The translations under genes and the position numbers were made by a program. A DNA stretch of 64,000 nucleotides from a virus: IMG/VR virus record IMGVR_UViG_3300045988_093513, positions 1 to 64,000 of that record. One strand, written 5' to 3'. Below the pieces are notes generated by a model. The model saw nothing but the letters and a program-made list of their open reading frames with translations. It had not been told where the DNA came from and ran no database searches. Below are positions 4,325 through 63,999 of the stretch, one piece after another; the stretch's first letter is position 1, and each line of letters starts with the position of its first letter.

Positions 4325-4341
4325 CAAGAAAGGAGAATAAC

Positions 4342-30800: not shown

Positions 30801-33800
30801 TTTCTTGGCGAAGAATTCTGTAACGTTACCTTTAACTAAGTTAGGTTCTACTTTTTCTTTTCCGAGAGCTGCGTTTGCTGCGCTCTCTTCACGGACGGAA
30901 GTAATTACCCAGTTATCTGCCCGACAAAATTCTTTGAGTTTAGCGAGTCTATCCTCTTCTTTGTTAGCTCCTTTATATTCTTTATACTGTTTGTCCGTTA
31001 ACAGGTACTTATTTCCTTTGTAGGATACGACACGTTCTTCGCTTCTCTCTGCTGCGAACTTTCCTTTGTTTGTTCCGTATGCGTAGTTGTATACTACTTT
31101 ACTAAGCTTTACATCTCGATGGCCAGGGGCTGCCTTATTTGGGTCTACCTTATGTTCTCTCTTCATCTTATCGGCGATACTTTCAATCTTAGCTTCGAGT
31201 GCTTTCGATAACAGTATCGCATCTACTTTTGTGACACCGTGTTGCACAGCAAACCCTAACTTCAGAGCTACACTACTATCCGTCGGATAGAAATGCCCAG
31301 CACCCATCATGCCAGCAGAGAGTACACCACGCTTTGCCTTATTAATAGCGTTCTTCCACCTATTAATAAAGTTGTCTTTTGTTTTGTTGTATTTATCCTC
31401 GGTCTTAACTTTTTCTATATACCCTTTGCTACACTCTTCCCACAGGTCTTCAATCCACTTATCTGTAAATTTATTCAACCCGCTGATTGTGTCTTCGTCG
31501 TATCCGAGCACTTTCATAATCTGTTTATATTTTTCTACGGTTACCTGTCTACGTTTCCCGTTTTCTGTTACGATAAGAGACATATCGCTGATATTAATAT
31601 CGTCAATGCTGGACTTGTTATCGGCTATATACTTACCAACAAACTTACTTTCTTCAAATTCGCTTTCTGGCATCATCATTGCCGTGGTTTTAGTGTTAAG
31701 CCACGGGAATTTAGTGGTACGTCTATTTACAAGTTTATTAACTTCCTGACCATCGACATGCATCTTGCTGATAATGTTATGGCTATAACTTAAGCCAAAT
31801 AGTTTTCTACCTCTTTGGTCTTTTTGAACGTCTTCGCAGATTTGTTTAAGCCCTTGTTCAAAGTTTCTCATGCTAACATACCAATGGTCTCTATCAAGAC
31901 CTTTAGTTTCAGCGGTAGGGAATAAGCCGTTAATTTTTTTGATTAAATCAATAGCGTATTCTCGAACATTGTCTGCGTCAGAACTATCTTTATGTTGTGC
32001 AAATTCAGATTCACCAATGTCGCCATAGTTATCTCTTACTGTTCTTACGATAAATGCAATCATAAGATTTGCTTTTTCAGTAGAAGACAGGAATGCGCCA
32101 TCCTGGTTCTGCCGCTTCAACATATTTTTATAAAGCCCCGTATCCAGTTCATTACATAACTGAATCTCGAATGATGTAATGGCAAGATAACGAGCTGCTT
32201 GGGCTGCTACCGCATAATCAAAACTTCTTTCGAGTGTAAGGTTGTTGTTGTCTATATAGTCGTGGTGAATTGATGTTACTGCATTTTTTTCGTTCTCCAC
32301 GCCATCGCCAGTTTTATCTTGACTCTTATCTCCGATATCGTCATCGTCTTCGCTATGCTGTTCTTTACTGCCTTTGGTTTTCTTCTGCCTATTCGTTTTA
32401 GCCTCTTGCTTTTTCACGTCTTCGTTATCTACCTGCATATATTTATCCTTAGCTGCTTCAGCTAAGGCAATAGCTTCTGCTATTATATTGGCTTTTGAAA
32501 CCGCAACAGCTCTACCATTCTTAGTTAAGAGTTCATTTCCGGCGACATTGTTTATAAATGCATCTCGTGTGAGACCAATATAATCGGAAAGTTCAATATC
32601 TGGTTGCGATACCTTATCGCTTTTTTTAGAATTACCATACGCTGCTCGCAGAATAAATGTCTTGCCATATTCGTTTGCCTTCAGCTCAACATCTTTCGGT
32701 ACTTTACTTAATGATTCTACGATATCTTCTTTAATATTACCAAGCTTCTGCATCATTCGATATGCGTTCCAAGCTTCCTCGCCCTTATCTGTATTCACTA
32801 CAGAAAGGAAAGCATCCGAGAAGGCGTAAATAAACTCACGAGTGTAGTCTTCAAAGTCTTTATCAGTACCAGTTTTCTTAAAATTATTCAGTAATTCTCT
32901 CAGGTGTTCTGCGTATGGCCCACGAACCATTTCGTTATTAACTGCGGCGATAATTTCCATACGACCAGTGGATTTAATGCCTTGTTGTGGCTGAGCATAT
33001 TGCTCTAATAACCATGGAAGTGCATCTGCAAACTTTTCCATTCCGTATTCGTGGAGTTCTTTCGGCATACTATATGAAGACATGTCCTGAACCAACCGGT
33101 ACGCTGTCTGCTTGTCCTCATCCGCACCAACAAACAGGTCGCCAGTTACGGAGTAAAGCTGTCTAGGTGTAAGCTTTGCCAGAATAATACTATTTCCACC
33201 ACGGTCTACTATGTATTGCTGATATTTGCTATTCAAAACGTACCAGAACCATGTGTTTAAGCTAGCGACACCCTTAGAATTCTCAGGGTCTTGCTCCATC
33301 TTAACACGTACTCCATCATACGTTGCGATAGCTGTATGAATAGCGCCAGGTAAGATATCGAGCAGGTCTGCGTAGGCACTTCTAAAGTCGGTCGGGTTGT
33401 CAAAATCAACAACACCATTACGGTTTGCACCGTTAGCTACCGTCATTTTATCACGAAGCAGGTTGATACCATAAGACGCAAGAGCACCAAAGGCAGCCAT
33501 GTATTGCATCTTGGCATGGAACTCTTCTTCTTTACTCTTAAATTTATGAGCTCCACCAAGAAAACTAATATACTGTTTCGCCTCTGGTAATATGGTCACT
33601 AGATTAGCGAAAGACATCCTGTTGATAGTACCGTAGTGTTTACCAACAACGTCTTTTAATTCTTTATATAACTTCCCTTTACGATACTCATTGTAGCGTT
33701 GACTTGCTTTAACGTCTACGGAGTCCTGAACAACTCCTGTCTGCACAAACTTTAACGTGGGCAGGTCTTTATCTTTTGGTAACTCCTGTGCATTATTCGC

Positions 33801-36800
33801 TTCACCGTTACGGCTAGCAATAATGTCGTTTATTCTATTGAAAGTGGCGTTCAGACTATCGAGTTCGTCCAAGAGGTCGTCTTCGCTAATATCATCTTCG
33901 TCCATAAGGTCGTCTTCGATATGAGTTTCATCCTCACTACCTTTGTCTGGTGTACCACCATCTTCTTTGAACAGCGGGCTATCTTCTTCCTGTAATTTAT
34001 GTGCTATTTTTTTCTTGTCAGTTTGTTTTGTACTGGTTTCGGAACTTTCGGTTTCGCTGCTCGTGCCATTGTTGTCGAACCGCCCCTGTTGATGTGTGTT
34101 CCTCCCAGCTTCTGTCCTGGTTTCTGTTTTGCTGTCCGTACTACCTTTGGCATTCTTGGGTGGCTGAGTGTTTTCATTTTTCCCTCCTGTTGAAATCTTT
34201 GTAATCGAATCGTTAGATTGCACTGGCTGTTGCTGTGTATTGCCAGTTGTATCTTTCGGTGTATTAGTATTGTCCTGCTTCTTAGGGGTGACAGCGACAT
34301 TGTTATTGTTTTTGTTGGTAGCACTATTTGTATTGTCTTTTGCGTTTACACCAATGACGCTATTATAAACATCATCTGGAATGCTCTTTAGAATAGTAAC
34401 GGCTGCTGGTTTTGCGGCGTCATCATCGGCTCTTCTGAAAACTTCCAAGGCAGGTTTTGGAATATTGAGAGCATTTCTCTTATCAAGCTTGTCGATAATG
34501 TTCCGTGCTCTATCTAATCCGTTTGGTGTGTTAATATTTGCGATAACATTAACCCTTGAATTTCTATCGTTATTTACACTGTCTTCTACTGGATTGGTAG
34601 TTTTACCTACGTTCTCCGGCTCTTTCATTTCCGCCGTTAAATAACGCTGATTTGCAGCATTTTGAACGTTTTGCACTTGCGGCTGTACTACCTGCTGTGC
34701 CACCTGTGGTCTTGCCAGACCACCAAGTGGAGACGTGTTAAGTCTATCAGTGTGTACTGGTGCTTGTGTCTGTTCTACTCTCTGCTGTGTAACTGCTTCT
34801 TGTTTTGTCATGATAGGCTTCTGTACTACTGGGGTCTGCTGTTCTGTCTGTACTTTCTGTGCTGCCTGTTCCTGCGGCTTCTGTAATTTCTGCTGAGTTT
34901 CTTCTACAACCGGTTGTTCTACCAGTTCTTCCACCGGTACATCAGTAACATCTACAACAGGCTGCTGTTCCTGTGTTCTTTCCTGTCTATTCTTCGCTTC
35001 CATATAAGCGTTAGGGTCAACGGCTCTAAGTACATCTCTGATAGCATTAGTATCATCATTGTTCGCTCTATCAAGAAGTTGCTGATTAACTTTCAAGAAT
35101 CTGCTCTTGGTTTTATCAGCCAATTCTTCTGCCTTACCGTTCGGGGCAAGAGAGCGAATAATTTCCTGTGCTCTCTGGATAGCTTCTGTATCAGCGTCTT
35201 TCTTTCCAACACTTTTAATAACATTTTTAATATCATTCTTTACTGCGTCTAATTCCTGTTTTGCCTGTTCAGCCTGAGCTTTCTTTTCGTTATTACGTTC
35301 TCTTACGGCATTTACTACGTTCTTTCTATCAAGGTTAGACAGAATATAGTAAGCGGCGTTAGTGTCACCGTTTACTGCTTTATTTAACAATTCAGGAGAA
35401 AGCTTTGCATTCCCATCTGGAATATTTTCATTGATTGCATTAATGTCTGCATTGTTATATGCTCTAGTGAGAATATCTGGCAGGTCTGCCATTTTAGCTC
35501 TAGTATCATCAACGAACTGAGACATTGCATCGTTATGTTCAATAGGCTGCGGCTCTTTTTCTACTGGAGTTGTAATTGCATTTTGCAGTACAGGTGCTTC
35601 CTGTGTGACGGTACTTGGCATAACTGGCGCTGTATTACCCTGCTGTGGCATTACAGTATCACCAGTCAGAGACATAGTATTGTCATCAACTACGTTCGGC
35701 ATAAGAGGCTGTTCTACTGGTACTTCGTGTCCAATATAGTCGGACAGGTCTGTACTATCTGCCATAGCATTAGCAATACCAGTTGTCTGCATTAGGTTGT
35801 TATAGTCGTTCTTAGCTTCGGCTGTCGGGCCAAGAGAATCAATATTGTTATACAGGTAACGTCCTGCATTACGCACACCGGCTACACCTACACCAGAGAC
35901 AAGTGTTGGCAAAAATGCGGAGTTGAACGAGTTGATTTCATCGTCAGTAAAGTTGCCTCGGTTGCCATTAGCAATATCACGGAAGAAACTGCCAGCGTCA
36001 GCACGGTCATCGTCAAACTTATTAGACATTGCGTCCTGTACACGCTGCTGCCATGCTTCCTGAAAGCCTTCGCCAAACGCATTCGTCAGTCTGTTGCCGA
36101 TAAAGTCGATTGGTTTACTAGCTGTTGACAATCCATACGCAGCTCGCCCAAGCATAGTATCAGCACGTGCAGTGTCGCCTAAAAGTGCGCTAGCTACTTT
36201 ACCGCCATTAGAAGCTAATGCATCGGCAATACCAGCCTTCGCAAGACCTTTTCCGGCAAGAGAGAATAAACCACCAGTAGCACCAGTAGCTACATCAATC
36301 GCAGTGTCCATGAAAGAAGAACCAATAAGTTCTGCATTCTTATATGGGTCACCTGTAAAGCTATCCCATGCCGACTGGTCAATAGTACCATCGTATACGG
36401 TGCCAATAGGTCTCTGACCAGCTGCAATCTGTGCTTCCATGTTGTCTCTCTTGGCGTCCATATAGTTTTGACCGAAGTTAGCACCAATTTCAAGACCAGC
36501 GCTACCTAAGATACCAAGAGCAGGAAGAGCCATTCCACCGCCAGCTGCTAATGCTGCACCTGCTAACATACCCGGTGCAGAAGAACCAAGCATAGTACCA
36601 GCGTCACTGGAAAGACCATGCGGGTCAATAAGGTATCCGAGAGACCAACGAGACTTGTCTGGGTTATTATCATAGTCATTAGCCCAGTCAGAGTATCTTG
36701 CCGCCTGTCTTGTAAGGTCGCCACCAACACCAGCTAACCATGGGCTATCTGCTACTACCCCAGCAGCAGTTAAAGCTCCGCCAAGCGTAGACTCGGCAGA

Positions 36801-36962
36801 GCTTGTAAAACTGTCCCAAAAACTTCCAATGGCCCCTTGGTCTAGGTCACGTTCAGACGGAACCCAACCAAGAGCCAGCTTATCTTGGTATTGTCTGTCT
36901 GCCTGGTCTAACGCAGCAGCGAGCTGTGCCCCTGGCTGATAGTTATTAAACCTTACTGCCAT
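24858..36962 (-). CDS. Giant virion-associated protein (4034 aa) with a zincin HExxH motif, a long disordered linker and C-terminal hydrophobic segments. Polyvalent/ejection-protein-like.
   Basis: A single uninterrupted 12.1-kb ORF. VYHELMHAF at about 29310-29333. Gly-rich N-terminal region. About 300 aa of acidic/polar low complexity. C-terminal TM-like helices (FLGTMMLFSGVISGIPMMTMISGM). Confidence 0.65.
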   Translation of the reverse strand: MAVRFNNYQPGAQLAAALDQADRQYQDKLALGWVPSERDLDQGAIGSFWDSFTSSAESTLGGALTAAGVVADSPWLAGVGGDLTRQAARYSDWANDYDNNPDKSRWSLGYLIDPHGLSSDAGTMLGSSAPGMLAGAALAAGGGMALPALGILGSAGLEIGANFGQNYMDAKRDNMEAQIAAGQRPIGTVYDGTIDQSAWDSFTGDPYKNAELIGSSFMDTAIDVATGATGGLFSLAGKGLAKAGIADALASNGGKVASALLGDTARADTMLGRAAYGLSTASKPIDFIGNRLTNAFGEGFQEAWQQRVQDAMSNKFDDDRADAGSFFRDIANGNRGNFTDDEINSFNSAFLPTLVSGVGVAGVRNAGRYLYNNIDSLGPTAEAKNDYNNLMQTTGIANAMADSTDLSDYIGHEVPVEQPLMPNVVDDNTMSLTGDTVMPQQGNTAPVMPSTVTQEAPVLQNAITTPVEKEPQPIEHNDAMSQFVDDTRAKMADLPDILTRAYNNADINAINENIPDGNAKLSPELLNKAVNGDTNAAYYILSNLDRKNVVNAVRERNNEKKAQAEQAKQELDAVKNDIKNVIKSVGKKDADTEAIQRAQEIIRSLAPNGKAEELADKTKSRFLKVNQQLLDRANNDDTNAIRDVLRAVDPNAYMEAKNRQERTQEQQPVVDVTDVPVEELVEQPVVEETQQKLQKPQEQAAQKVQTEQQTPVVQKPIMTKQEAVTQQRVEQTQAPVHTDRLNTSPLGGLARPQVAQQVVQPQVQNVQNAANQRYLTAEMKEPENVGKTTNPVEDSVNNDRNSRVNVIANINTPNGLDRARNIIDKLDKRNALNIPKPALEVFRRADDDAAKPAAVTILKSIPDDVYNSVIGVNAKDNTNSATNKNNNNVAVTPKKQDNTNTPKDTTGNTQQQPVQSNDSITKISTGGKNENTQPPKNAKGSTDSKTETRTEAGRNTHQQGRFDNNGTSSETESSETSTKQTDKKKIAHKLQEEDSPLFKEDGGTPDKGSEDETHIEDDLMDEDDISEDDLLDELDSLNATFNRINDIIASRNGEANNAQELPKDKDLPTLKFVQTGVVQDSVDVKASQRYNEYRKGKLYKELKDVVGKHYGTINRMSFANLVTILPEAKQYISFLGGAHKFKSKEEEFHAKMQYMAAFGALASYGINLLRDKMTVANGANRNGVVDFDNPTDFRSAYADLLDILPGAIHTAIATYDGVRVKMEQDPENSKGVASLNTWFWYVLNSKYQQYIVDRGGNSIILAKLTPRQLYSVTGDLFVGADEDKQTAYRLVQDMSSYSMPKELHEYGMEKFADALPWLLEQYAQPQQGIKSTGRMEIIAAVNNEMVRGPYAEHLRELLNNFKKTGTDKDFEDYTREFIYAFSDAFLSVVNTDKGEEAWNAYRMMQKLGNIKEDIVESLSKVPKDVELKANEYGKTFILRAAYGNSKKSDKVSQPDIELSDYIGLTRDAFINNVAGNELLTKNGRAVAVSKANIIAEAIALAEAAKDKYMQVDNEDVKKQEAKTNRQKKTKGSKEQHSEDDDDIGDKSQDKTGDGVENEKNAVTSIHHDYIDNNNLTLERSFDYAVAAQAARYLAITSFEIQLCNELDTGLYKNMLKRQNQDGAFLSSTEKANLMIAFIVRTVRDNYGDIGESEFAQHKDSSDADNVREYAIDLIKKINGLFPTAETKGLDRDHWYVSMRNFEQGLKQICEDVQKDQRGRKLFGLSYSHNIISKMHVDGQEVNKLVNRRTTKFPWLNTKTTAMMMPESEFEESKFVGKYIADNKSSIDDINISDMSLIVTENGKRRQVTVEKYKQIMKVLGYDEDTISGLNKFTDKWIEDLWEECSKGYIEKVKTEDKYNKTKDNFINRWKNAINKAKRGVLSAGMMGAGHFYPTDSSVALKLGFAVQHGVTKVDAILLSKALEAKIESIADKMKREHKVDPNKAAPGHRDVKLSKVVYNYAYGTNKGKFAAERSEERVVSYKGNKYLLTDKQYKEYKGANKEEDRLAKLKEFCRADNWVITSVREESAANAALGKEKVEPNLVKGNVTEFFAKKEGSKPGDTNYSTDHGVLQSSGTVVGAITTLLHDYFNIDESGISNNVIVKAVLAINNTLPKEALINNGLNGYIQKVAKEKNESEATVRERVMKQIKADVNRFVHLEQMEIAGRARNTSLIKKFGTSHNPQNKPIFSEGPNEFRDDVNAISLRVDKKDKRFVVVNKKPKFDYSDEETKESGYINSWAYTKLREAILGALNIMDYQDGYYVVKKLDITDSSPIKNIKGRVDIHDIDSTKWKAKNKLEPYENPIATLLQYMGSVDKSDLKEEYGKDIPYTIEDLMADPNYNYLMMAHNDSAMGSDGLITSLHTFSYELAQKDKLSYTDIANLCSLFTIASKRLKGLDSANKTVDILDKLLKSVTTRPELFNSNQSYSVKNVDLPNAIDIIYGKQLHELKPLTVDAIRDLSSELLGTPKEDVIRMSKENTAFLGANLKGHLDKNVNVQFAHTLFVNRASNTLGVAPYIASRLNKDSGYKESMGRIVADDHRSTVYHELMHAFTDEAVTIDVAKGKYRLALPSDANWKDEKFGGLAVDRNAQELPEDLKDDAEEAIGRALKKELEKSLKILNNNDSLLAGQILAITELVDVNKLVEDTAAMWTIANLIGYDGTKTGDARFVSKVGATTLGMFYKNVDASNYETLVMSMILPSIIFGAKTVNKEIPLFYSTKQLITETYSHLDTTPPNTTGDNERRNIAGSDSSAFMTTWLYKSAELLRELDVQDPKHEIRNKDKKRMREQLKKAAESISELTSNSNFGVLNFKTQTNQHATVKKKKEKKKVDVGTSKGVITNARDVSHDAGSPRGKFMQLLYAIANKRNKTFSQTSTSGLNHAKDIKLALIPGMRWLEELVNKEDADRLFDESQRSIAYQQELNAKSDAYVKQLQQLLTIDGNELQTKALRQYFNTEINVNSDRGRDLVELFDLPYEAGQDERCKNRSSSGKNAMLKVYDDDIFFVLHNQPDKATAMAKMNDKIEKMKEYYDKKKKKFYKNQAFWYREDTGTLVFYACKDERMQNGKFKNLFIAYPSNEDGTGVEGQARMRARLQKQVLRECEQFRRKLMKQRGYAQPVIDGFIASQALYRALLMNAYEREQKRALQNDDIINRVHTGFLHAYAPRYYARYILQKEVWHEITEEQANKNEKSKDEGFIVQRGDKYYHVITYSIGSFESKRDRSKYRNEHPIGQNERYVEKTRDEWLQEQGGGRTDIVGNVDTSIGTLTEKDVSRGKKEAETDISGRLAKFIRKKFNDSEEWQGDDSIERVVNALRNMDKEDEEEFGKYKPRLIQTARMIRVGKDKVQTFRQVSDALKANGAQYLAANYARERTSNSGLYSHDVIGSLKHYLHTVNSVEALTPFYRDMTQTIYKYTGRNYDRTRRDSYYSPYNIMCELVDNMNGRDKPADAFMRRLSVMVVDAIYAVPGMRNILNACGVYLPDMWLPALLHNSIAVNVYLKLGMFNVSTALAQYAQLANVYALGGESAFAYAMKKMPGILTKAHKPSDILKGEFDVSQYGKEIQQVMADLYLTKKGKSLLEQEGEKAFDEAIKRGDKTAIELQVFDEMLDTLNGKDGESVMNDMATQLGNAGSAYEGESIIDKMPKTGKKILDLSMSGFRGADLACRLFAALVAQNLIDTSPKYKAFRESKSEIGEEEYNAQRMATIRDFVYRTNFNFNRATDPLLLAKGGQLAKCVFQFASYGFQTFHFMYWMLKNKKSTELKRFLGTMMLFSGVISGIPMMTMISGMSQAITGTNPEDWIKAFILKAAGRRNDQFSRDIGEALCYGIAAPVFGVDISKKVGLSDIMKDPTDLRNLGGPSLGTAIDFSSAAGASFDAIMYDKYTTDQLMFAWLKAVPAASRWLQAARGQYYSYSKLMPKTEYQSMSDVDRAKNIMGFNPIENKLNTDLNRFVTDINQDYSNSAKDVMIAYVNNPTEANLRKLQSYGKTPEQAHKAVDKYIKPKVTAEQAEKMVTKSDNEEADIVRSNVRALGNLLN

Positions 36963-49787: not shown

Positions 49788-50188
49788 ATGCTACCTCCTT
49801 GAGAAATACCTGGGGAAATGAATGCTTTACCGTTACAGATTCGTTTAACGTCGTGTCCGTCAAACATATTAACGTCCCAATAAAGCTCTTCCCATTCTTT
49901 ATAAGAATTACCACCAGTATCAATGGAAGCAGTTTCTTCCGCACTCAGTGATAAATTAACAATACCATTTTTAGGGTCTACATCTACCTGATGCATCTTT
50001 GCAATAACCGTGGTATCCTCGGCTGACGCTTTTACACTAGCGTAAAACTTGTAATCACTAATATCAATAGGTGTATCCTTTTCTCCCTCAAGGAGTTCAA
50101 ACTGAATATCAAAGTCTGCCCCCTGAGCGATAACGATATCAACTACTGGTACTAGCGGTGTTGCATTGTCACAGTTATGTCTGAGCAT
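49784..50188 (-). CDS. Hypothetical protein (134 aa), Ig-like composition
   Basis: ORF. Confidence 0.35.
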   Translation of the reverse strand: MLRHNCDNATPLVPVVDIVIAQGADFDIQFELLEGEKDTPIDISDYKFYASVKASAEDTTVIAKMHQVDVDPKNGIVNLSLSAEETASIDTGGNSYKEWEELYWDVNMFDGHDVKRICNGKAFISPGISQGGSM

Positions 50189-51123
50189 TGTTCACCTCCA
50201 TAATTTTTATACAAAGTGTCTATCACTCCTCCGTAATAGGCGCGTACAATCGGGCATCTACGTAAGGTTGCTTCGTCAGACATTAACGAGCATCCACCGC
50301 CACAGAACCTAAGCATATCGCATTTTGCACACATGCCCTGCTGTCTTTTAATTGTCTTATCCCATTCGCGAGAATATTCGCTTGGCTTACTCTCGTCATG
50401 GCAATTATACAAACTCCCATCTAGGTCTATATTGATAACTGTAGTTCCGTTACCGCACTTGTTGCCATAATCATATTGCCCTGTTAGTTGATACAGAGTT
50501 GAGAATATCATCGATGCTTCTGGTACTGTTGCCGTACCGTTAATGAACCTTTCTGTACAGGTACACATGTCTTTGTACAACTGGTCAACATCGACTTCCT
50601 CGAACTCCAACTGACTACTCGTAAAATTCAGAGGGAAATCAAAGTTCAAGCTAAACTCTTTATCTGGTAACAGCTCGCTTACGCGATTGATTACATCATG
50701 TACGACCGTCCATTTTGTTAGCACTGCCGAGATGCATAAGTTGTCAACGTCTTTAATGTTTGGGTTCTCTTGAAGAACATCGTATCCTCTGGTTTTCTTA
50801 CTAATTGGTCCATCCCAAGATACAGTTACACCGACATCATACTTATTCAGCCATTCTACTTTATCTTTATCTAGTAACTTACCGTTCGTTATAATGCCGT
50901 AACATAAATCAGAACGGTGAGACATGATTTCTTTAATGGCACCAAAGTACAACAGAGGCTCCCCGCCAAAAAATACGACAGGTGTTTTCGGCGGTATGGA
51001 ATGGAAGTATTCCCAGAACCTTGGTTTAATAGCTCTCGGGATTTGTCTTTCTTTAATCTGTCTCTGACAACAGTATGTACATTGTAAGTTGCAATCATTC
51101 CCTAGAATTACGAACAGTTTCAT
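50152..51123 (-). CDS. Radical SAM enzyme with a C-terminal SPASM domain
   Basis: CNLQCTYC (CxxxCxxC), GGEPLL and ITNG motifs. C-terminal CAKCDMLRFCGGGC (Cx2Cx5Cx3C). Confidence 0.65.
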   Translation of the reverse strand: MKLFVILGNDCNLQCTYCCQRQIKERQIPRAIKPRFWEYFHSIPPKTPVVFFGGEPLLYFGAIKEIMSHRSDLCYGIITNGKLLDKDKVEWLNKYDVGVTVSWDGPISKKTRGYDVLQENPNIKDVDNLCISAVLTKWTVVHDVINRVSELLPDKEFSLNFDFPLNFTSSQLEFEEVDVDQLYKDMCTCTERFINGTATVPEASMIFSTLYQLTGQYDYGNKCGNGTTVINIDLDGSLYNCHDESKPSEYSREWDKTIKRQQGMCAKCDMLRFCGGGCSLMSDEATLRRCPIVRAYYGGVIDTLYKNYGGEQCSDITVTMQHR

Positions 51124-52270
51124 ACGTCTTACCTACGCAAGCTGTAACAACTTCGCCACCCTGAATATTAAGGACGGTACGAATCAAATCCATGATATAA
51201 TCTGTTGCAAACAAGAACGTTACCGCTTCCAGTGGAATACCAACGGCTGCAAAAATAATTGCACAATCCATGAGCGTCCCGCCGATAATACCTGGAGCAC
51301 ACATCAAAGCTACAGTGGTTAATAACAATACCGTTACAATCGCCGCTACGCTTAGAGGTACTCCAAAGATGGATGAGGCGTACATAACATATACACCCAC
51401 GCAGACACACGAACCGACACGCATCAATACAGAAACGATAGGGGTGAGGTAATCAATCACTTCATGTGGAATGTCTGTATCTTTTTTCAATAATACGATA
51501 CGATTTCCGATAGTATTGGATGCGCCACCAGCAATAGCGTTAGCAACGTCCTCTACAAAGATAGCTCTCAGGAACGATGCCCCATCTACTTTGTGCAAGT
51601 AAAGGACGGGAAGTGACGCAAGTAAAGTAAACAATACAACCCCAACAATCAGTGTACCAAACATGCATACATAACTCTGTAATACGCCAAGACCAAATTT
51701 AACCACAACAGGGTACAGCAATGCGAATACTCCAACAGGTGCGATATACATGATGCAGTTAGCAATTTTCAGAAAGACGTGCTGGATAATACCAAGGGCG
51801 TGTGCGATAGAACTCTTATATGCACTTGTCCGCCCAACTAAACCTACCATGATTGCTAACGTTACAATCTGTAACATGTTACCCGTCGCAAACGAGTGAA
51901 CAATATTGACAGGGATACAGCCGTTGATGAACGACAGCACTGTAGGAGCCTGTACAGCGACCGTATTTGTTGCGGTTACGACAAACGTAGGTACACCAAT
52001 TACCCACGTTAATCCTAACCCTAACGCGACACCAATTACACTCAAGCCAAACATTAAGATAAAGGCGTGTACCGATACCTTTTGTCCATCATGCATATCG
52101 ATAATCGCTTTCGCGATAGACGCAAATGCTAACGGAACAACACACACCTTGAGTAACGACGTAAACATAGTGCCCAATTCTTTGAGGGGGTACTGTAACC
52201 ACGCGACATCTCCAAACACAAGCCCTAAACAAAGTGCTAACGCAATAGAGATTGCAATATTCCTATACAT
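51095..52270 (-). CDS. Sodium:dicarboxylate/amino-acid symporter (SDF, GltP/GltT-like) family membrane protein
   Basis: About 8 TM plus re-entrant segments. Motifs KVCVVPLAFASIAKAI, YIAPVGVFALL and DLIRTVLNIQGGEVVTACV match SDF signatures. Confidence 0.5.
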   Translation of the reverse strand: MYRNIAISIALALCLGLVFGDVAWLQYPLKELGTMFTSLLKVCVVPLAFASIAKAIIDMHDGQKVSVHAFILMFGLSVIGVALGLGLTWVIGVPTFVVTATNTVAVQAPTVLSFINGCIPVNIVHSFATGNMLQIVTLAIMVGLVGRTSAYKSSIAHALGIIQHVFLKIANCIMYIAPVGVFALLYPVVVKFGLGVLQSYVCMFGTLIVGVVLFTLLASLPVLYLHKVDGASFLRAIFVEDVANAIAGGASNTIGNRIVLLKKDTDIPHEVIDYLTPIVSVLMRVGSCVCVGVYVMYASSIFGVPLSVAAIVTVLLLTTVALMCAPGIIGGTLMDCAIIFAAVGIPLEAVTFLFATDYIMDLIRTVLNIQGGEVVTACVGKTYETVRNSRE

Positions 52271-52278
52271 GTATCCTC

Positions 52279-53265
52279 CTATAAATCTAACGCTTGCGCA
52301 ACGTCACTCCACAATAACTTTGGGTTTTCGAGCCCAATAGAAAGTCTAGCACAGAACCCTTGCGGATACCGTTCCTTACTTCTGAAGAAATCAGCGATAG
52401 AGTAAGTGCACCCGAAAGTTCCAACAGTCTTAAACTGTTTCAATCGCTTGCAGAACTCTTCTGTTTTTCCTGGTAGTGTAATTAAGCCACCACATCCAGG
52501 CCACAAGCAATCTACACCAGCTTCCTTGAGATTATCATAAATGTATGCTGCGCCATCTGTGTGCATAATCATTCTGCACGCCAATGTCTGCAACCCACGA
52601 CTAACCATGTACGCTTTATCTGGAGATACGCAGTTACCACGATGGGCGATAACCCACGACAAGTTATCCTGTCCTGGGTTTGCGAGTGGAACTGGCTTCT
52701 GTTCTAACCATCGCATGGTATCGGCAAAACATAAACCACCTGCCACTACATCGCCATAACCGCACACATATTTAGTATAAGACTCAATACATACATCGGC
52801 TCCATTCTTAATTGGATTCGAGTAATGGAGAGACACGATTGAGTTGTCTACCGCCAAGATACCGTTATAACGATGAGTTGTATCCGCCAGTGTTTGTACG
52901 TCATACCACTTAGCAAATGTTGTTGGGTTATCAATGATTACTAACACAGTTCCTTTAGAGGTGGCTAGAACGATTTCTAGGTCAGGCAACTGACCGACAT
53001 CTTTTAATTGAACGGTATTGATATTCTTATAGTGCAACCAATCACGTGTTTCAAAATATGTTTCGTCGTCGACAATAACTACATCTGGTTGCAAAATATC
53101 TAGGAGGGTTACAATAGCCTCCTGACCACTGTTACACAAAACTGTACGCCATCCTCCATAGAGTTTTGTCAGTTCCTCTTCCACCTGCCTAATAGGCATG
53201 TTGTGTGTTCTTACATATCGTCCAGTATTGTCACTAACGACGTTCATGTCAATAGTTGGTAACAT
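52279..53265 (-). CDS. PLP-dependent enzyme of the Cys/Met-metabolism (cystathionine gamma-synthase/lyase) family
   Basis: LCNSGQEAI and ESYTKYVCGYGDVVAG (SxTKY..GH.D-like PLP-lysine motif). Confidence 0.5.
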   Translation of the reverse strand: MLPTIDMNVVSDNTGRYVRTHNMPIRQVEEELTKLYGGWRTVLCNSGQEAIVTLLDILQPDVVIVDDETYFETRDWLHYKNINTVQLKDVGQLPDLEIVLATSKGTVLVIIDNPTTFAKWYDVQTLADTTHRYNGILAVDNSIVSLHYSNPIKNGADVCIESYTKYVCGYGDVVAGGLCFADTMRWLEQKPVPLANPGQDNLSWVIAHRGNCVSPDKAYMVSRGLQTLACRMIMHTDGAAYIYDNLKEAGVDCLWPGCGGLITLPGKTEEFCKRLKQFKTVGTFGCTYSIADFFRSKERYPQGFCARLSIGLENPKLLWSDVAQALDL

Positions 53266-57713: not shown

Positions 57714-58073
57714 TTACATGTGGTCAACTGTCATAAACTCTGGGTTGTCCTTCAGCCACTGTTTGATATACTTGTTGAAGCTCTCGTGGTCGCCACACGC
57801 CATAGCTTCTTTAGCACACTGGAGTGTGAGCTCTGTCGGGTCGTTCCAGCATTCATAAGGGATACGCCCAAGCCTTCGCCCACCTTTATGCTTCCCGAGA
57901 TACGGGTCTTTCTTTCTATCCTCGTAGCAGGAACGCATAATGTCAGTTGCGTCCCAAGTATTAGTCAGTGACCAGTTACCATGTTTATCGACATCAACGT
58001 CTTGTCTTACAATGTTATTACTCATGTTATCTCCTTTTGATATAAGAAAAAAGGGGAGCCATAGGCTCCCCAA
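57714..58073 (-). CDS. Hypothetical protein (119 aa)
   Basis: ORF. Confidence 0.4.
   Translation of the reverse strand: MGSLWLPFFLISKGDNMSNNIVRQDVDVDKHGNWSLTNTWDATDIMRSCYEDRKKDPYLGKHKGGRRLGRIPYECWNDPTELTLQCAKEAMACGDHESFNKYIKQWLKDNPEFMTVDHM
58046..58071 (-). terminator. Rho-independent terminator after the capsid gene (minus strand)
   Basis: GGGGAGCC-ATA-GGCTCCCC hairpin followed by U7 on the minus strand. Confidence 0.65.
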
Positions 58074-58094: not shown

Positions 58095-59057
58095 TTACGG
58101 CGCAACGGTTGGAGTAATAGTCTCCACGACAACTGGTTTCGGGTTAACCTTACCAGTCAGGTTCTTAATACGAGCGTTAGCATTCGGTGCGGTACATTCG
58201 ATAGATGCTACGCCAGTGATTACCTTTTCCTTATAAGTACCGACTCTCGGCGGTTCTTCAGTATGGAACGGAATAAGGTAGCCAAGTTTCCAATACTGCG
58301 GGTCGAGCAGGTCAACCACATCGTCAGAGTACATACGATGGGCTTCCAGACGAAGAGAACCAAAGTCAGTCTCGATGATTTCGAGAGAGGTGGTGATACT
58401 CTTGTCACCTGCCTGGCGAATCGGCAGTGCACCCTGAGTAAAGTCGGCGCATCCACGCTTATTACGTGCGGACATAATAGCGACGGACGGGTCGCCACCA
58501 CGCTGCCAGGTCAGCTGCATTGCGTCATTCAGAAGGTCGAAAGTAAGGTTGCCCTTAGCAACGTCCTTCGCTGCGTCAATGCAGTTCTGGAATGTGATGG
58601 AGCCCATCTTAGTTTCTTTAACTTTACCTTCACCGCTGGAAACACCATGACCATTTGCGTCATACTTGACGGAGTTCATAGCGCCTTCCGGAGTGTCATA
58701 CAGATAGAACGTATTAGCGTCCTTAACTGCTACGTAGTAGGCAACGTTTTCTTTACATACAGCACCACCACGAACGATGAGGGCATCGCCGTTTACAAAG
58801 CCGTGGTCGTTCAGAGTGAACTCACCAAAAGCTACGGTTACACCTTTCAGTTCATCTTCAAGGAAGTACGGAATACCACCAAAAGTACCAGCAACGTTTT
58901 CAGACATCGGGGTTGCAGTGGTGTTGTTTACGATAGCATATTCAAGGTCACCTGCGATTTCCTTGCCAGCCTTAACGAACTGGTACGCTACTTCGTCACG
59001 AACACCGTACTTTTTGATAGCCTGAGTGATATCAGAGATGTTATCGTTTGTGTTAAC
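58095..59057 (-). CDS. Major capsid protein, 3' exon (HK97-fold-like)
   Basis: The frame is open from 59057 (after an in-frame TGA at 59058-60) to the stop. The sequence is capsid-like and the position is portal-scaffold-capsid. The listed ORF from the first ATG (58907) is a truncation artefact. Confidence 0.5.
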   Translation of the reverse strand, partial: VNTNDNISDITQAIKKYGVRDEVAYQFVKAGKEIAGDLEYAIVNNTTATPMSENVAGTFGGIPYFLEDELKGVTVAFGEFTLNDHGFVNGDALIVRGGAVCKENVAYYVAVKDANTFYLYDTPEGAMNSVKYDANGHGVSSGEGKVKETKMGSITFQNCIDAAKDVAKGNLTFDLLNDAMQLTWQRGGDPSVAIMSARNKRGCADFTQGALPIRQAGDKSITTSLEIIETDFGSLRLEAHRMYSDDVVDLLDPQYWKLGYLIPFHTEEPPRVGTYKEKVITGVASIECTAPNANARIKNLTGKVNPKPVVVETITPTVAP

Positions 59058-59810
59058 TCATACTTTCATATGAGACCAGACTATATTATACTTAATCGGT
59101 GTTATCGTATAGTCGTTGGGATTTCATACGCTTTTCACAGTAATTATTTAACCTTTTCTGTTTACGTAAAATATTGAACTTTAGTCCAGATTCTATAAAT
59201 GACTTTAGGTTCATAGTGAAACTCAGTTGTACTTTGTTTTTGGTTCGTATTTCTCTTGTCTTACCACACGATACACCAAAGGATTGTAGCATCCTTTTTA
59301 TATCGTATGTCCAAGAGTATGTAGTTCCGTACCCCATCATCCAATTTGTATTACCATTTGGATTGGCACGCTGTGAGACCCAACCATCAGAATCAAGTAC
59401 ACCTTCTAAAAATTCTTTCTTTAACTCTTTGTCCCATTGATACACATAGTCTGGGATGTATCTACATCCAGCTGTGTCATCAACGAATATCTTAAATTCT
59501 TTAGAACATACTTGAAGATAGTATTTGTTAGTCCCTACCCTTTGGTGGACTTTCACATCTCTATTGATAAAACGTGATAAGTAATCAGCAACTTTACCAA
59601 TAAACTCTTTATCAATACATTCAAATGAGTATGCGTACGTGTTCCCTCTTTTGAAAACACTAGCATCTCCAAAGTAACAACCAAGTAAATAAGCGTATGT
59701 CTTATCTGCGGGTTTCCTATTCATAATACATATCCTTTCTATTTTTACACTTTGGTAAGAAGGGCTTTAAGGGTTTCCTGCATATGGATAACTTTTATAT
59801 GGGCAAACAT
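59058..59810 (-). mobile_element. Intervening element in the capsid gene. Probably a group I intron carrying a LAGLIDADG homing endonuclease.
   Basis: A 750-nt insertion between two in-phase capsid ORF halves. It contains a free-standing LAGLIDADG ORF in a different frame with its own RBS. Confidence 0.45.
59092..59724 (-). CDS. LAGLIDADG homing endonuclease
   Basis: Two LAGLIDADG motifs: AYLLGCYFGDASV and EFLEGVLDSDGWVS. RBS AAAGGATATG. Confidence 0.7.
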   Translation of the reverse strand: MNRKPADKTYAYLLGCYFGDASVFKRGNTYAYSFECIDKEFIGKVADYLSRFINRDVKVHQRVGTNKYYLQVCSKEFKIFVDDTAGCRYIPDYVYQWDKELKKEFLEGVLDSDGWVSQRANPNGNTNWMMGYGTTYSWTYDIKRMLQSFGVSCGKTREIRTKNKVQLSFTMNLKSFIESGLKFNILRKQKRLNNYCEKRMKSQRLYDNTD

Positions 59811-60119
59811 TTACCCATGCATGAACTGCTGAACAGTGTTGTACATCCAACGTCTCGGCACGGTTTCCGTGGTATCGAAGTTGATAACTTCAGGATGCTT
59901 GTTCACCATTGCCGGACGGAGAGAATCTCTCAGCCATTCATGTTTAGTGGATACTACGGTAGTTTTACCGAACATCTGTGTAAGTTTAGTTTTATCTGGG
60001 TCGAGGTTGGTAATGAAGTCAGACATATCTCTAACAGTACCAACGACGTTATAAGAGCGAAGGGCAGAACCTTTATTATGCGGGGCTGCTGCACCTGTAG
60101 CTGGCATACCTACTGCCAT
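59811..60119 (-). CDS. Major capsid protein, 5' exon (N-terminal about 100 aa)
   Basis: Same frame phase as the 3' exon. Terminated by a TAA that I infer lies inside the intron. Confidence 0.45.
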   Translation of the reverse strand: MAVGMPATGAAAPHNKGSALRSYNVVGTVRDMSDFITNLDPDKTKLTQMFGKTTVVSTKHEWLRDSLRPAMVNKHPEVINFDTTETVPRRWMYNTVQQFMHG

Positions 60120-60829: not shown

Positions 60830-61161
60830 CTGTCGCTGCTGTTCGAGAGCCTGACGCTGAGCTGCGAGTTCCTGTGTTTTCCTAGTGTCTTAACCTTCGA
60901 GTAAAGTCGTTAATTTTACCCCGTCATTCCACAGGAGAATGACTGCTGCATATTTCTATGCAGAAGAGACTATTTCTTCACCTTCTCCTTTCAGAGGTCA
61001 GGTGTCTGGCACTTCCGTCCACTTGGACGTACTCCCTGCAACGGGATAGTCGTTACGGGTTCCCAGCATAGCTGGGCTTCCCACGAGATTGCCCTCGTCT
61101 TTACGTTAGGGTGTTCCTCGTTTTCACCAGATTTAAATCAAGGATTTCTCCAAGAAGTGAC

Positions 61162-61569
61162 CTATTTTGTTAAGTCAGCCTGTCGCATATAACCATTACG
61201 CATTTCATCCATAGAAACCTGTACGTCCTGTCCATCTACACGGACAGTCTGCATTTCCGGCTGCGGCTGTGGTACTTCCTGCGGCTGTTCTTGGACGGGT
61301 TCTGGTTCATCATCATAGTCGCCTGTCGGTTCTCCGAAAAAGGCGTCGGCAAAAGTGACGTCCCCGTTCTCGTCAATACCAAATGCAGGTTCATCAGCGT
61401 CATTGTTCTGCGGTGCAGTCTGCGCATCCGGTGTTTCCACTGGCGCAGTTGTTGCAGGAACAGGTTCCTGAGCTGGTTCTACCATTGGCATTCCGTTCTG
61501 CATTTCTTCCATAAATTCCTCCTTTTTGCACTCCGTAAAGGTTGGTGCAGTAAAATATATATACGCCAA
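61162..61569 (-). CDS. Acidic scaffolding-like protein (TTG start). Possibly exon 1 of a split scaffold gene.
   Basis: A 135-aa highly acidic, Pro/Gln/Glu-rich protein. It sits between the portal-side genes and the capsid gene. Confidence 0.4.
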   Translation of the reverse strand: MAYIYFTAPTFTECKKEEFMEEMQNGMPMVEPAQEPVPATTAPVETPDAQTAPQNNDADEPAFGIDENGDVTFADAFFGEPTGDYDDEPEPVQEQPQEVPQPQPEMQTVRVDGQDVQVSMDEMRNGYMRQADLTK

Positions 61570-61726
61570 TAACCATGCAAAATTTGTTCGTTAAATAACG
61601 AGGTTTTACACGGTTTTGACGAAATTAACTGGCACGGATTGCTAGAATCGAACTAGCGAATTGCTGGGTCAAAGCCAGCCGCCTTCACCACTTGGCTAAA
61701 CCCGTATCACTATTTGTATAAGAAAA

Positions 61727-62563
61727 CTACCTATTATTCTGGTTGTATGCACGCAATGCATTAAATCCACGGATAAGTGGGTCGTGTTCATCGTGATATG
61801 CAGACGGGTTTGCATCCCTGTATGTCTGAGCATCAAGCTGATAATAGTCAGCAGGGCTAGGCTGTGCATAAGCGTTATCCATAGCGTAGTAGTCTGCTAC
61901 GGAATTACCTGGCATATCGAAGCCTTCAGAAGAACCAGTGGAACCAGAGTCATCTGGTACACCAAGCGCCATAGCATCCTGAGCAGCTGCCGGTCCATAG
62001 TTCTGCCGCATAGCAGCTTCATACTCCATCTGCTTACGAAGTTTTTCTCTTTCATACGCTTCATACTGAGCCTGTGTATGGTCGATACCACCATTGTTTA
62101 CAAGGTATTCATGCATACCCCAGTTCATCGGTGTCTTATCACGGTTAGCAATTTGTTCGTCTGTCCATCCTGCGTCTTTCATAAGCTGAATACCTCTATC
62201 GTTGATAGTATCGCCAGTATTAGCATATGTCAGCGGTGCATTAGGTGTACCAGAAGGTAAATTACGTGTAGCAAATTCATAAGAACCGGCCTTAGGTGTC
62301 GGCTTCAGCTGACTACCGTTATCGATAGCTGCCTGCCCACGGTTAGCGGACCGTACCCAAGCGTTACTATCATCACGGGTCGGTGCCATAAACCTATTAC
62401 GAATACGTTCACGCTCTTTGTCATATTCAGACATGGGAGCGTTTTCCTGTGCAGTTGGCGTACTGCCATGAATCTGATTGTAAACATCTGTGAGAGCTTT
62501 AGCTGCTTCATATCTTTGAACATCCGCCTGTCGAGGGATACTCCTCGTATACTTAATTGCCAT
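61727..62563 (-). CDS. Hypothetical head-assembly protein (278 aa)
   Basis: ORF with an AGGAGG RBS. Confidence 0.45.
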   Translation of the reverse strand: MAIKYTRSIPRQADVQRYEAAKALTDVYNQIHGSTPTAQENAPMSEYDKERERIRNRFMAPTRDDSNAWVRSANRGQAAIDNGSQLKPTPKAGSYEFATRNLPSGTPNAPLTYANTGDTINDRGIQLMKDAGWTDEQIANRDKTPMNWGMHEYLVNNGGIDHTQAQYEAYEREKLRKQMEYEAAMRQNYGPAAAQDAMALGVPDDSGSTGSSEGFDMPGNSVADYYAMDNAYAQPSPADYYQLDAQTYRDANPSAYHDEHDPLIRGFNALRAYNQNNR

Positions 62564-63999
62564 TAATAACCTCCTACTCCATTAGTCGGTTCAGCAGGTG
62601 CGCCATTAGGAACCCTATTATCGGCTGGCTGCTGACCAATTTGTTTGTCTGGAGAGAGGGCGTCACTACCTTGTCGCACAGTAGAAGTGACCGCTCCTCC
62701 TGCTCCTTGTGGTGCAGATACATTCTGCATAGGAACCGTACTCTGACCAGTGTTGTTTGTATTTGTTGGTAACGTATGATTCAAGAATACTACCTGCACA
62801 TAGGGGGGGAGTGAGTAGAGAACCTGAATCGGTAACGAGCCATACTGGAAGTAGTAAGCCACAACATCAGGGGGGAGAGTCTGAAGTGTTGCCTGAATGA
62901 TTTGTGCTTCAAGCATAGTACGCTGTTGCGCAACAACAGGGTCAGTAATATAGTCACCTGTATTTTTAATACCCATATTTTCCATCCAACGTTTCGTGAT
63001 GTTATAAATGTTATGTGGAGTTGCAACCGCAACACCAGTAGCGTTTACTTGCATGATAGCAGTCATGAGCGTCTGAAGCTGGGTATTCATAGCTTCTTTA
63101 CTCTGGATGGAGAGACCAGCGTTTACAACCAGATCGAAAGAGCCAGACAAGTCATCTGGTTTGATTTCCATTGGTTCCCCTGTTAATCGAATAACAGTGT
63201 TTTGGTCAATAAACTTTTGGTTCAAAGATATAAGAAAACGATATAGTTCATATACACCCGTTTCAGCAAACATACGAGCAATAAGTTCCAGTCGCTGATT
63301 AGATGCATTCATGATGGTATTGATACCGCTTGCTGTGTTATGTGTTACGGTATAGTGTTTGCCTACGCAGAACTGACCATCTTCGGCATCAACAGTTAAA
63401 CACCGCATTGGAATAATATCGGTCGGTTCGATTAATACTATTTTAACCCTATCAACACTACGTTTAGACTGTACATACTTGTTTGCTTTTCGGCTTAATC
63501 TAAATGGATTATCGAGGCAACTAATAGTTAAATGCCAATATGTACGACCTTCTTTAGCTAACTTGCCAGGGAATTGCTCTGACTTAGAATAATTCCAGCC
63601 AAAGGAACAAATCAAGCGTTCTACATCGTCCAATAACTGCCCGTTTGCTTGAGAGAAAATAGCCAACGAACCAGAATGGTGACAACCATCAGTGTCCATA
63701 AGTCCACGAAGAAGTTCCATACGCTGTCTATAAGAAGCACTAAAGAAAATCTCCGGTATGTGTTTACAGTTATCTTTCATGTCGTCGTATCTTGCATCGC
63801 GGGCAATGTGTAGTTTTCTAAGGATGGTGTGCAAGTCTGTGCCAACTATGTCATACGTAATAGCCTTTCCTGCGTTTTGGTGTGAAGACGGTCTGATAAA
63901 ACCACCTCTGAACTTTGCCCATTCGGACATGGCGTCCACTATTTCTTTATCCATTGAGGTAAAGCGATTGGTGTGTAAGCAGCCGTCGCCCAAGAACAC
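62563..63999 (-). CDS. Intein-containing packaging/structural protein (portal or large-terminase-like). The 5' part is outside the window.
   Basis: The ORF runs to the window edge. The N-terminal 221 aa seen are the C-terminal part of an intein. The remainder is the C-extein. Confidence 0.55.
   Translation of the reverse strand: MFLGDGCLHTNRFTSMDKEIVDAMSEWAKFRGGFIRPSSHQNAGKAITYDIVGTDLHTILRKLHIARDARYDDMKDNCKHIPEIFFSASYRQRMELLRGLMDTDGCHHSGSLAIFSQANGQLLDDVERLICSFGWNYSKSEQFPGKLAKEGRTYWHLTISCLDNPFRLSRKANKYVQSKRSVDRVKIVLIEPTDIIPMRCLTVDAEDGQFCVGKHYTVTHNTASGINTIMNASNQRLELIARMFAETGVYELYRFLISLNQKFIDQNTVIRLTGEPMEIKPDDLSGSFDLVVNAGLSIQSKEAMNTQLQTLMTAIMQVNATGVAVATPHNIYNITKRWMENMGIKNTGDYITDPVVAQQRTMLEAQIIQATLQTLPPDVVAYYFQYGSLPIQVLYSLPPYVQVVFLNHTLPTNTNNTGQSTVPMQNVSAPQGAGGAVTSTVRQGSDALSPDKQIGQQPADNRVPNGAPAEPTNGVGGY
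63337..63999 (-). mobile_element. Intein (partial) with a LAGLIDADG homing-endonuclease domain
   Basis: Blocks FLGDGCLH and LRGLMDTDGCH (LAGLIDADG x2). C-terminal splicing block LTVDAEDGQFCVGKHYTVTHN followed by the +1 Thr. Confidence 0.65.

Follow-up and report, generated by a model that had tools for sequence, protein, structure and literature searches.

A viral DNA stretch of 64,000 nucleotides (positions 1 to 64,000 of IMG/VR virus record IMGVR_UViG_3300045988_093513, hereafter the window) carries a major capsid gene in two pieces, with a gene for a LAGLIDADG homing endonuclease between them. This arrangement raises the question of whether the capsid gene has been broken for good, or whether its two pieces are rejoined in the RNA. 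Our analysis suggests that the insertion is very probably a splicing-competent group I intron carrying a homing endonuclease gene (HEG), a reading drawn from comparison with related sequences. All features of the capsid locus are on the minus strand of the window.

Two parts of one capsid gene

The N-terminal open reading frame (ORF) runs from 60119 to 59811, encodes 102 residues and is terminated by a TAA at 59813-59811. The C-terminal frame follows a TGA at 59060-59058 and is open from 59057 to the stop codon at 58097-58095 (320 codons). The two segments share one codon phase (60119-58907 = 1212 = 3 x 404), and many stops interrupt the capsid frame between 59811 and the TGA. An initial annotation of this DNA had described two capsid-like segments of these sizes in one phase, separated by these two in-frame stops, and the ORFs we find agree with both statements. 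The 102-residue segment matches positions 7-83 of the Pfam SU10_MCP profile (E=1.8e-13) and the 320-codon segment matches positions 89-292 of its 292 positions (E=1.3e-45). The segments are abutting parts of one profile, far beyond chance. We also made an AlphaFold model of an uninterrupted homologue (predicted local distance difference test score, pLDDT, of 78.5), which matches the capsid proteins of Pa223 (E=9e-24), SU10 (E=8e-18) and HK97. The Pfam matches and the modelled fold confirm that the flanking ORFs were rightly assigned to a capsid protein, of SU10 type and with a predicted HK97 fold. The closest cultured capsid matches in a tblastn search of phages are from short-tailed Pseudomonas and Salmonella phages, with less than 30% identity.

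The ends of the insertion are fixed by homologues that lack it, a comparison that the initial annotation had proposed and that defines the exon boundary to the nucleotide. A protein search returned two intact capsid proteins of 418 residues (P0001 and P0002, 95% identical), and uninterrupted genes with 92-97% identity are found at loci L001, L012, L013 and L085. Intact homologues read ...QQFMHGY-NISDITQAIKKYG..., with HGY|NISDITQ around the junction, and the intron-less allele in L001 reads ...TTCATGCACGGCTACAACATCTCTGAT... / ...CAGTTCATGCACGGCTACAACATCTCTGATATC... at the insertion site. A DNA alignment of the window, the uninterrupted L001 and the interrupted L002 and L003 places the insertion between GGG-T and AT-AAC-ATC. 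The remaining one-base ambiguity was settled by the group I rules, which require exon 1 to end in U and the intron in G; T59813|A59044 was chosen because no other placement meets both. Joining T59813 to A59044 restores the Tyr codon TAT and the homologue sequence HGY-NISD exactly.

The intron occupies 59045..59812, starts with AAAUGUUU, ends with ...ACAAACG and is missing from 95%-identical homologues. An insertion of about 750 nucleotides (nt) had been proposed; it is present, with an exact length of 768 nt and a 3' boundary 12 nt downstream of the last stop. Exon 1 (59813..60119), supported by its SU10_MCP match and the L001 DNA alignment, comprises 102 codons and T59813, the first base of Tyr codon 103. 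Exon 2 (58095..59044) supplies the AT of this codon, 315 further codons and the stop, and is supported by its SU10_MCP match and by a junction collinear with P0001 and P0002. The spliced ORF has 418 codons, collinear with the same two proteins. Its predicted RNA junction reads ...CAUGGGU|AUAACAUC... (as DNA ...TTCATGCATGGGT + ATAACATCTCTGAT...), and the predicted protein reads ...QQFMHGYNISDITQ..., with QQFMHGYNISDITQAIK as the peptide across the junction.

The first ATG of the C-terminal frame is at 58907, and a protein starting there would lose 46 conserved residues. The initial annotation had taken the open frame upstream of this ATG as capsid sequence, which holds for these 46 residues but fails for the last four open codons (VNTN) upstream of exon 2, which belong to the intron; the splice site falls within the next codon, GAT. 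We rejected a 3' splice site at G59057, where a weak Rfam alignment ends, as the resulting HGF-NTND-NISD adds four residues that homologues lack.

Group I pairings and their covariation

We built the intron structure by comparison with relatives, using as a layout template the Rfam alignment of an ORF-less intron 1.3 kb upstream in the window. The last six bases of exon 1, AUGGGU (59818..59813), pair with an internal guide sequence, GCCCAU (59804..59799), to form P1, with U59813 in a U.G wobble at the 5' splice site. P10 is formed by AUGUU in the intron (59810..59806) and AACAU in exon 2 (59042..59038). P3 (GUUAUC/GAUAAC, 59792..59787/59106..59101) has complementary versions in relatives. P4 (UGCAGG/CCCGCA, 59782..59777/59712..59707) has its 5' strand in the 'P' element AUGCAGGAAA and its partner in codons 5-6 of the HEG. 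It is followed by J4/5 and J5/4 (AAA each, 59776..59774 and 59715..59713) and P5 (CCU/AGG, 59772..59770/59718..59716). P6 (GAU/AUC, 59706..59704/59122..59120) and P6a (CAUACGCU/AGCGUAUG, 59699..59692/59132..59125) close a loop of about 560-570 nt that contains most of the HEG. The 3' part consists of J6/7 (CCAAC, 59119..59115), P7 (GACUA/UAGUC, 59114..59110/59083..59079), a minimal P8 (ACCGAUUAAGU, 59100..59090) that contains the HEG stop codon, J8/7 (AUAAUA, 59089..59084), P9.0 (GU/AC, 59076..59075/59047..59046), P9 (CUCAUAU-GAAA-GUAUGAG with a GAAA loop, 59074..59057) and the omega-G at 59045.

The window intron has no P2; the P3/P7 pseudoknot, P4-P5-P6, P8 and P9 keep their canonical order. 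The layout of P4-J4/5-P5 agrees with the Rfam consensus, and CCAAC-GACUA...AUAAUA-UAGUC fits the consensus UCAaA-GACUA...GAUA-UAGUC, which corresponds to the predicted guanosine-binding P7 with J6/7 and J8/7. The R/S-like elements CAACGACUAUA and AUAUAGUC match the Rfam consensus and are invariant in all relatives. Together with AUGCWGGAAA and AAYCNGCAG they are laid out as in the RF00028 consensus, and this core is conserved even at wobble positions. Unconstrained folding of the ORF-deleted window intron gives P1, P6a and P9, and the ORF-deleted intron of L009 gives P4-P5-P6-P6a, P8, P9 and two further 3' hairpins.

Three candidate pairings were dropped: GGU/GAC after P7' with GCC/GUC in L5, which P9.0 explains better; a bulged P4 from AUGCWGG and ACC..AGYGU, given up for a P4 that resembles the consensus and has the Q element within the ORF; and GUGU/ACAC between L5 and the 3' tail, which is inconsistent in L007.

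The pairings are further supported by covariation. The close relatives with the same layout are L002, L004, L005 and L006, joined later by L014-L016. The distant ones are L007 and L083 at the same codon, L009 (site B, 20 codons downstream) and L069-L081 (site D, near codon 33). Pairs were counted by script from explicit coordinates, since a MAFFT alignment of the ORF-deleted introns mis-registered P1, P6a and the 3' ends of L007 and L009, and one strand was slid by 1-3 nt as a control. Over 34 pairs in seven introns, 97.9% of the cells are canonical, compared with 29-39% in the slid controls, and 15 pairs show double-sided (compensatory) changes.

P1 is the clearest case. Nine exon/guide variants are found, all complementary and each with the U.G wobble: AUGGGU/GCCCAU in the window, ACGGCU/GGCCGU in L002 and L005, AUGGCU/GGCCAU in L004, ACGGGU/GCCCGU in L006, L014 and L015, AUGGAU/GUCCAU in L016, ACGGCU/GGUCGU in L007, AUGGCU/GGUCAU in L083, AAGCAU/GUGCUU in L009 and AUGAAU/GUUCAU in L069-L081. 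The guide thus follows synonymous changes in the His and Gly codons of exon 1 and is fully retargeted at the other insertion sites. In P10, L005 has AUAUU/AAUAU, a compensatory change from G-C to A-U, and the pairing extends to 7 base pairs (bp) in L007 and 6 bp in the site-D introns. Fully complementary versions number five for P3, four for P6 and four for P9.0 (GU/AC, AC/GU, AA/UU and UC/GA). P9 also shows compensatory changes among relatives. P6a has two such changes in L005 and is replaced by different complementary stems in L007 and L009, and P4 is a perfect UGCUGG/UCAGCA in L007, L009, L069 and L083. P7 is uninformative here because it never varies. The anatomy and the covariation, including that between guide and exon, support the proposal of the initial annotation that a group I intron interrupts the capsid gene.

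Several observations weigh against this assignment. The search with the Rfam model, proposed as a check, did not come out in its favor: RF00028 scores 17.5 bits on the capsid intron (E=0.1), below the gathering score of 50, and aligns only J8/7-P7'-P9, and no ORF-bearing relative reaches the gathering threshold (eight, then fourteen loci). P8 has about two Watson-Crick pairs in the window clade, compared with 6 bp in L009; P5 has just 3 bp, P4 contains one A.C mismatch in the window clade, and P9.0 is imperfect in two site-D introns (L069 and L072). Five of the seven introns in the pair table are close relatives, so the cell counts overstate the number of independent events. We note that the gathering score is an operational criterion, not a biochemical one, and that the low score is plausibly due to the ORF loop in P6a and the core, the absent P2 and the tiny P8.

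The endonuclease gene, predicted splicing and other readings

The HEG (59092..59724, 210 residues) lies in a frame other than that of the capsid gene and contains the motifs AYLLGCYFGDAS and EFLEGVLDSDGW. Its match to Pfam LAGLIDADG_3 covers two stretches and scores 46.1 bits (cutoff 22.5, E=5.8e-12). Both motifs (...YFGDAS and ...LDSDGW) can be aligned with those of I-DmoI and I-CreI and keep their acidic residues, and the nearest solved structure by sequence is the I-DmoI/I-CreI chimera 1mow, a very weak match (E=0.011). A tblastn search of phages with the endonuclease gave no match. The ratio of nonsynonymous to synonymous substitution rates is 0.05-0.09 among the HEG copies of the window clade, outside the ends that overlap the core, and the gene is under purifying selection. 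These features suggest an active homing endonuclease; a maturase role of the protein is possible as well.

The initial annotation had described a free-standing LAGLIDADG gene in another frame. The family and the frame are as described, but the gene is contained in the intron, shares sequence with much of the ribozyme core and so is not free-standing. It begins at intron nt 89 in the P5 extension, with AGGA 9-12 nt upstream of its ATG, and passes through P5', J5/4, P4' (codons 3-6) and P6. The gene is then mostly looped out of P6a, re-enters the core through P6a', P6', J6/7, P7 and P3', and stops in the P8 loop. The element CAACGACUAUA (59110-59120) is read as QRLY in the window and L007 and as (P)NDY(T) in L009; the same RNA element is found in different protein frames, which indicates that conservation there is at the RNA level. 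The ORF would be dual-coded with most of the ribozyme 3' core, which could couple its translation to splicing.

We propose the following scheme. The capsid gene would be transcribed as one pre-mRNA from 60119 to a terminator near 58053, where a terminator-like hairpin with a T-run (GGGGAGCC-TAT-GGCTCCCC TTTTTT, 58053..58071) directly follows the capsid stop. The guide GCCCAU would pair with AUGGGU in P1, holding U59813 in the U.G wobble, and AUGUU would pair with the start of exon 2 in P10. The core, composed of the P3/P7 pseudoknot, the P4-P5-P6 domain, the minimal P8 and P9.0/P9, would bind free guanosine. The guanosine would attack after U59813, the terminal G59045 would then dock, and the exons would be ligated as GGG-T|AT-AAC to give an intact 418-residue capsid protein of HK97 fold. 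By analogy with other intron homing endonucleases, the LAGLIDADG protein may cut intron-less capsid alleles during co-infection, and repair would copy the intron into them. Such homing would account for the intron being present in some of these near-identical phages and absent from others. We infer splicing, its efficiency and its independence of helpers, as well as the activity of the endonuclease, from these features.

A variant of this scheme is that the intron is real and not autonomously self-splicing, and folds only with help from the LAGLIDADG protein, acting as a maturase, or from a factor of the host or phage. Self-splicing is found in many compact group I introns of bacteria and phages, and both catalytic acidic residues are kept here, as expected of an endonuclease. 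The weak P5, P8 and P4 in the window clade and the strong conservation of the ORF point the other way, and some organellar LAGLIDADG proteins are maturases, as a legend in PMC7886860 also notes. We regard dependence on such a factor as unlikely on balance, and it is a refinement of the favored explanation, not an alternative to it.

A true alternative is that the intron is decayed and splicing-dead, or that the insertion is a mere endonuclease cassette, with the capsid gene being a pseudogene or encoding two polypeptides. The sub-threshold Rfam score fits this possibility, as does the annotation of two capsid fragments by automatic gene callers in relatives. We consider it highly improbable, as many diverged genomes share the arrangement and show compensatory changes that preserve P1, P10, P3, P6 and P9.0, which would be unexpected if pairing were irrelevant. 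Other observations speak against a separate C-terminal polypeptide. In the window, no start codon is present where the C-terminal part begins, the first ATG costs the 46 conserved residues, and the 302-residue database 'proteins' begin at a GTG that is GTT at the same position in the window. In the AlphaFold model of the intact homologue, the junction G102|Y103 is inside a beta-strand (97-106), ahead of a long helix (120-142), so that a break would be predicted to interrupt the strand. A scan of the minus strand found no terminator-like site between the exons, in contrast to the strong one 3' of the gene. A promoter scan between the two halves gave a single weak sigma-70-like match (9/12) inside the HEG (59170..59143), and such matches are no commoner here than in shuffled sequence. 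Moreover, the capsid exons are still 86-96% identical in protein to intact genes.

Another type of intervening element, namely an intein, a group II intron or a programmed translational bypass, has a negligible chance of being right: protein splicing does seem to occur in this genome, in view of a probable LAGLIDADG intein two genes away in the portal gene, but an intein here is excluded by the many stops that close the capsid frame and by the different frame of the endonuclease, the insertion has the LAGLIDADG gene as its only ORF with no reverse transcriptase and no group II match in Rfam, its 768 nt far exceed any bypass element known to us, and the group I pairings are specifically supported.

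Distribution, known systems and neighboring genes

A scan of IMG/VR returned 80 related capsid loci, most of them uninterrupted. Within a clade of at least 92% identity, L012, L013, L085 and L001 have no intron and L014-L016 and L002-L006 have one, the patchy pattern predicted for a mobile intron. The lineage of the window's LAGLIDADG intron is found at three codons of the capsid gene. Site A (HG|Y) is that of the window and is also occupied in L007 and L083. Site B (KA|YQM) is represented by L009 (2154-2996), and site D (VEDMN|DFITN) by L069, L070, L072, L074, L075, L077, L079 and L081 (around 1700-2480). The copies share the P, Q, R and S elements, and each guide matches its local exon.

A different-looking insertion in L008 (~3935-4755) carries a 188-residue LAGLIDADG ORF and interrupts another capsid homologue close to the C-terminal end (...VIDV|IETDFG...). 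On inspection by eye it fits the group I rules, with GACGU|AAACUG..., a guide GCGUC and an end at ...AUACG|AAUAGAA. An exact match to the P-element pattern ATATGCNGGAANNCCNNTAAAG turned up at one IMG/VR locus only, L010; it lies on the strand opposite a deaminase-like gene and is due to chance. No GenBank phage was hit in a megablast search with the region, and the intron family (core AUGCWGGAAA...CAACGACUAUA...AUAUAGUCUG) was not found in GenBank phage records.

The ORF-less intron used as the layout template is 284 nt long (60889-61172, minus strand; exons end at 61173 and start at 60888). It scores 84.5 bits with RF00028 over 61181..60946, which makes group I introns clearly present in this genome. 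It interrupts a Q/P-rich gene of 361 residues directly upstream of the capsid gene, which is scaffold-like by position only; a family search with it gave no match, and it is uninterrupted in L001, L002 and L004. Splicing at GAC-T|AC-ACT would give ...RQADYTRKTQ..., identical to the uninterrupted homologues. The two introns share the genome, the strand, the U|...G| type of splice sites, the order of the core and a position after the first base of a Tyr codon. Unlike the capsid intron, the second one has no ORF, possesses P2 and extra helices after P7, and belongs to an unrelated lineage.

This second lineage also reaches the capsid gene. In L017 (IMGVR_UViG_3300045988_070858, 2808-3079), whose capsid is 96% identical to that of the window, an ORF-less group I intron of 272 nt (RF00028, 77.9 bits), unrelated to the LAGLIDADG intron, is inserted at the identical phosphodiester bond (GGCU|...G|ACAAC). 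Its sequence is ~85% identical to that of the 284-nt intron in the window; the guides are GGUCAU and GGUCAC, respectively. One site used by two lineages, together with one lineage in two genes, suggests ectopic movement, for example by reverse splicing. That this capsid gene family hosts frequent ectopic transposition of introns by reverse splicing, with two lineages competing for one site, is a tentative proposal that we find somewhat doubtful. Mutation of the guide sequence along with retargeting of the endonuclease is an alternative route to new sites.

The genomes of these phages are ~65-70 kb, and many of the sample ids are in the style of the Human Microbiome Project. The L002 contig was binned with a Lachnospiraceae metagenome-assembled genome, a weak hint at the host; a scan of genome contigs re-found only the L002 contig.

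Among known systems, the classical mobile phage group I intron is the td intron of phage T4 with I-TevI, whose GIY-YIG ORF is looped out of the P6 region. By analogy, the window intron would likewise combine a ribozyme that restores an essential gene, an ORF looped from the P6 region and endonuclease-driven homing during co-infection. The td ORF is essentially outside the core, whereas the window ORF runs through P5', P4', P6, J6/7, P7 and P3' to L8, and compared with td the window intron lacks P2 and P7.1/P7.2. Organellar and archaeal group I introns encode LAGLIDADG endonucleases or maturases of the I-SceI, I-AniI and I-DmoI type. They resemble the window intron in the two-motif monomeric LAGLIDADG protein and in an ORF that can overlap core helices; they reside in rRNA or respiratory genes, whereas the window intron is in a phage structural gene.

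The initial annotation called introns in major capsid genes uncommon, which is fair, although documented cases exist (PMC3706429, PMC7886860). Mycobacteriophage LittleE (Cluster J) has a group I intron with an HNH endonuclease gene in its capsid gene, and its splicing was established by reverse transcription PCR and N-terminal protein sequencing (PMC3706429). Another capsid-gene group I intron, in lactococcal phage Tuc2009, is cited in the same paper. LittleE and the window share a major capsid gene split by an intron of ~0.8 kb with an endonuclease gene, a first exon ending in U, an intron ending in G and close relatives without the intron. The LittleE endonuclease is of the HNH type and encoded in the opposite direction, whereas that of the window is a LAGLIDADG protein, encoded on the same strand and interwoven with the ribozyme core. 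LittleE also differs from the window phage in capsid family and host phylum, and splicing in the window is a prediction from sequence. The crAss-like gut phages of the Delta and Zeta groups have group I introns in the major capsid protein gene and other core genes (PMC7886860), and Jug jumbo gut phages have ~18 introns per genome, partially validated by metatranscriptomics (PMC12880540). LAGLIDADG intron proteins have been noted in both (PMC7886860, PMC12880540). Like the window phage, these phages are uncultured and human-associated and have split essential late genes, often with inteins in neighboring structural genes. The window phage, unlike them, has an SU10-type capsid and portal and a genome of the size given above.

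Group I introns in capsid genes are thus already known, and no new mechanism is involved here. The particulars are an endonuclease of the LAGLIDADG and not the HNH or GIY-YIG type, an ORF interwoven with the core, a reduced P8 and the colonization of several sites of one gene. With this case, uncultured human-associated SU10-like phages would join those in which the late gene with the highest expression requires RNA splicing. The roughly ten guide variants, the four insertion sites and the one site shared by two lineages form a compact natural data set, which can be used to study how group I introns and LAGLIDADG endonucleases change targets. The intron also affects annotation: gene callers report this capsid gene as a 102-residue fragment, the endonuclease and a 270-302-residue fragment, sometimes with invented starts, which leads to hundreds of truncated 'capsid' entries in protein databases. 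Our protein search also returned many clusters of C-terminal fragments of 266-304 residues (P0003-P0009, P0012), which correspond to exon 2 of intron-split genes and in some cases begin at an artificial GTG. A further entry, P0052 (422 residues), joins a ketoacyl-synthase N-terminus to a capsid C-terminus and is probably an assembly chimera.

The SU10-type portal gene (62563-63999, minus strand) runs off the window end and contains an in-frame LAGLIDADG_3 domain, with a putative intein/extein junction at 63337|63336. It reads ...GKHYTVTHN|TASGINTIMNASNQ... in the window and ...SSLNK|TASGINAIMNASNQ... in L001, and the insertion resembles an intein whose last two residues are His-Asn, with Thr as the next residue. 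Only the C-terminal ~220 residues of the putative intein are inside the window. The portal protein has 1015 residues in L004, compared with 674-701 in L001 and L002. Downstream of the portal gene is a gene of 278 residues (61727-62563), and a tRNA-Gln gene (anticodon UUG, 61630-61705, minus strand), kept in L001, L002, L004 and L005, lies between it and the intron-containing scaffold-like gene.

Three metabolic-looking genes are found within the structural block (50152-53265, minus strand): a Cys/Met-metabolism pyridoxal phosphate (PLP) enzyme (52279-53265), a sodium:dicarboxylate symporter family protein (51095-52270) and a radical SAM protein (50152-51123). The PLP enzyme and symporter genes, at least, keep their position in L001 and L002. 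Elsewhere in the window are a single ORF of 4034 residues (24858-36962, minus strand) and genes for a Pol III alpha-type polymerase (19723-22650), a primase-DnaB fusion (16793-18778), a class I/II-type ribonucleotide reductase large subunit (10238-12439) and an SNF2 helicase (6843-8453).

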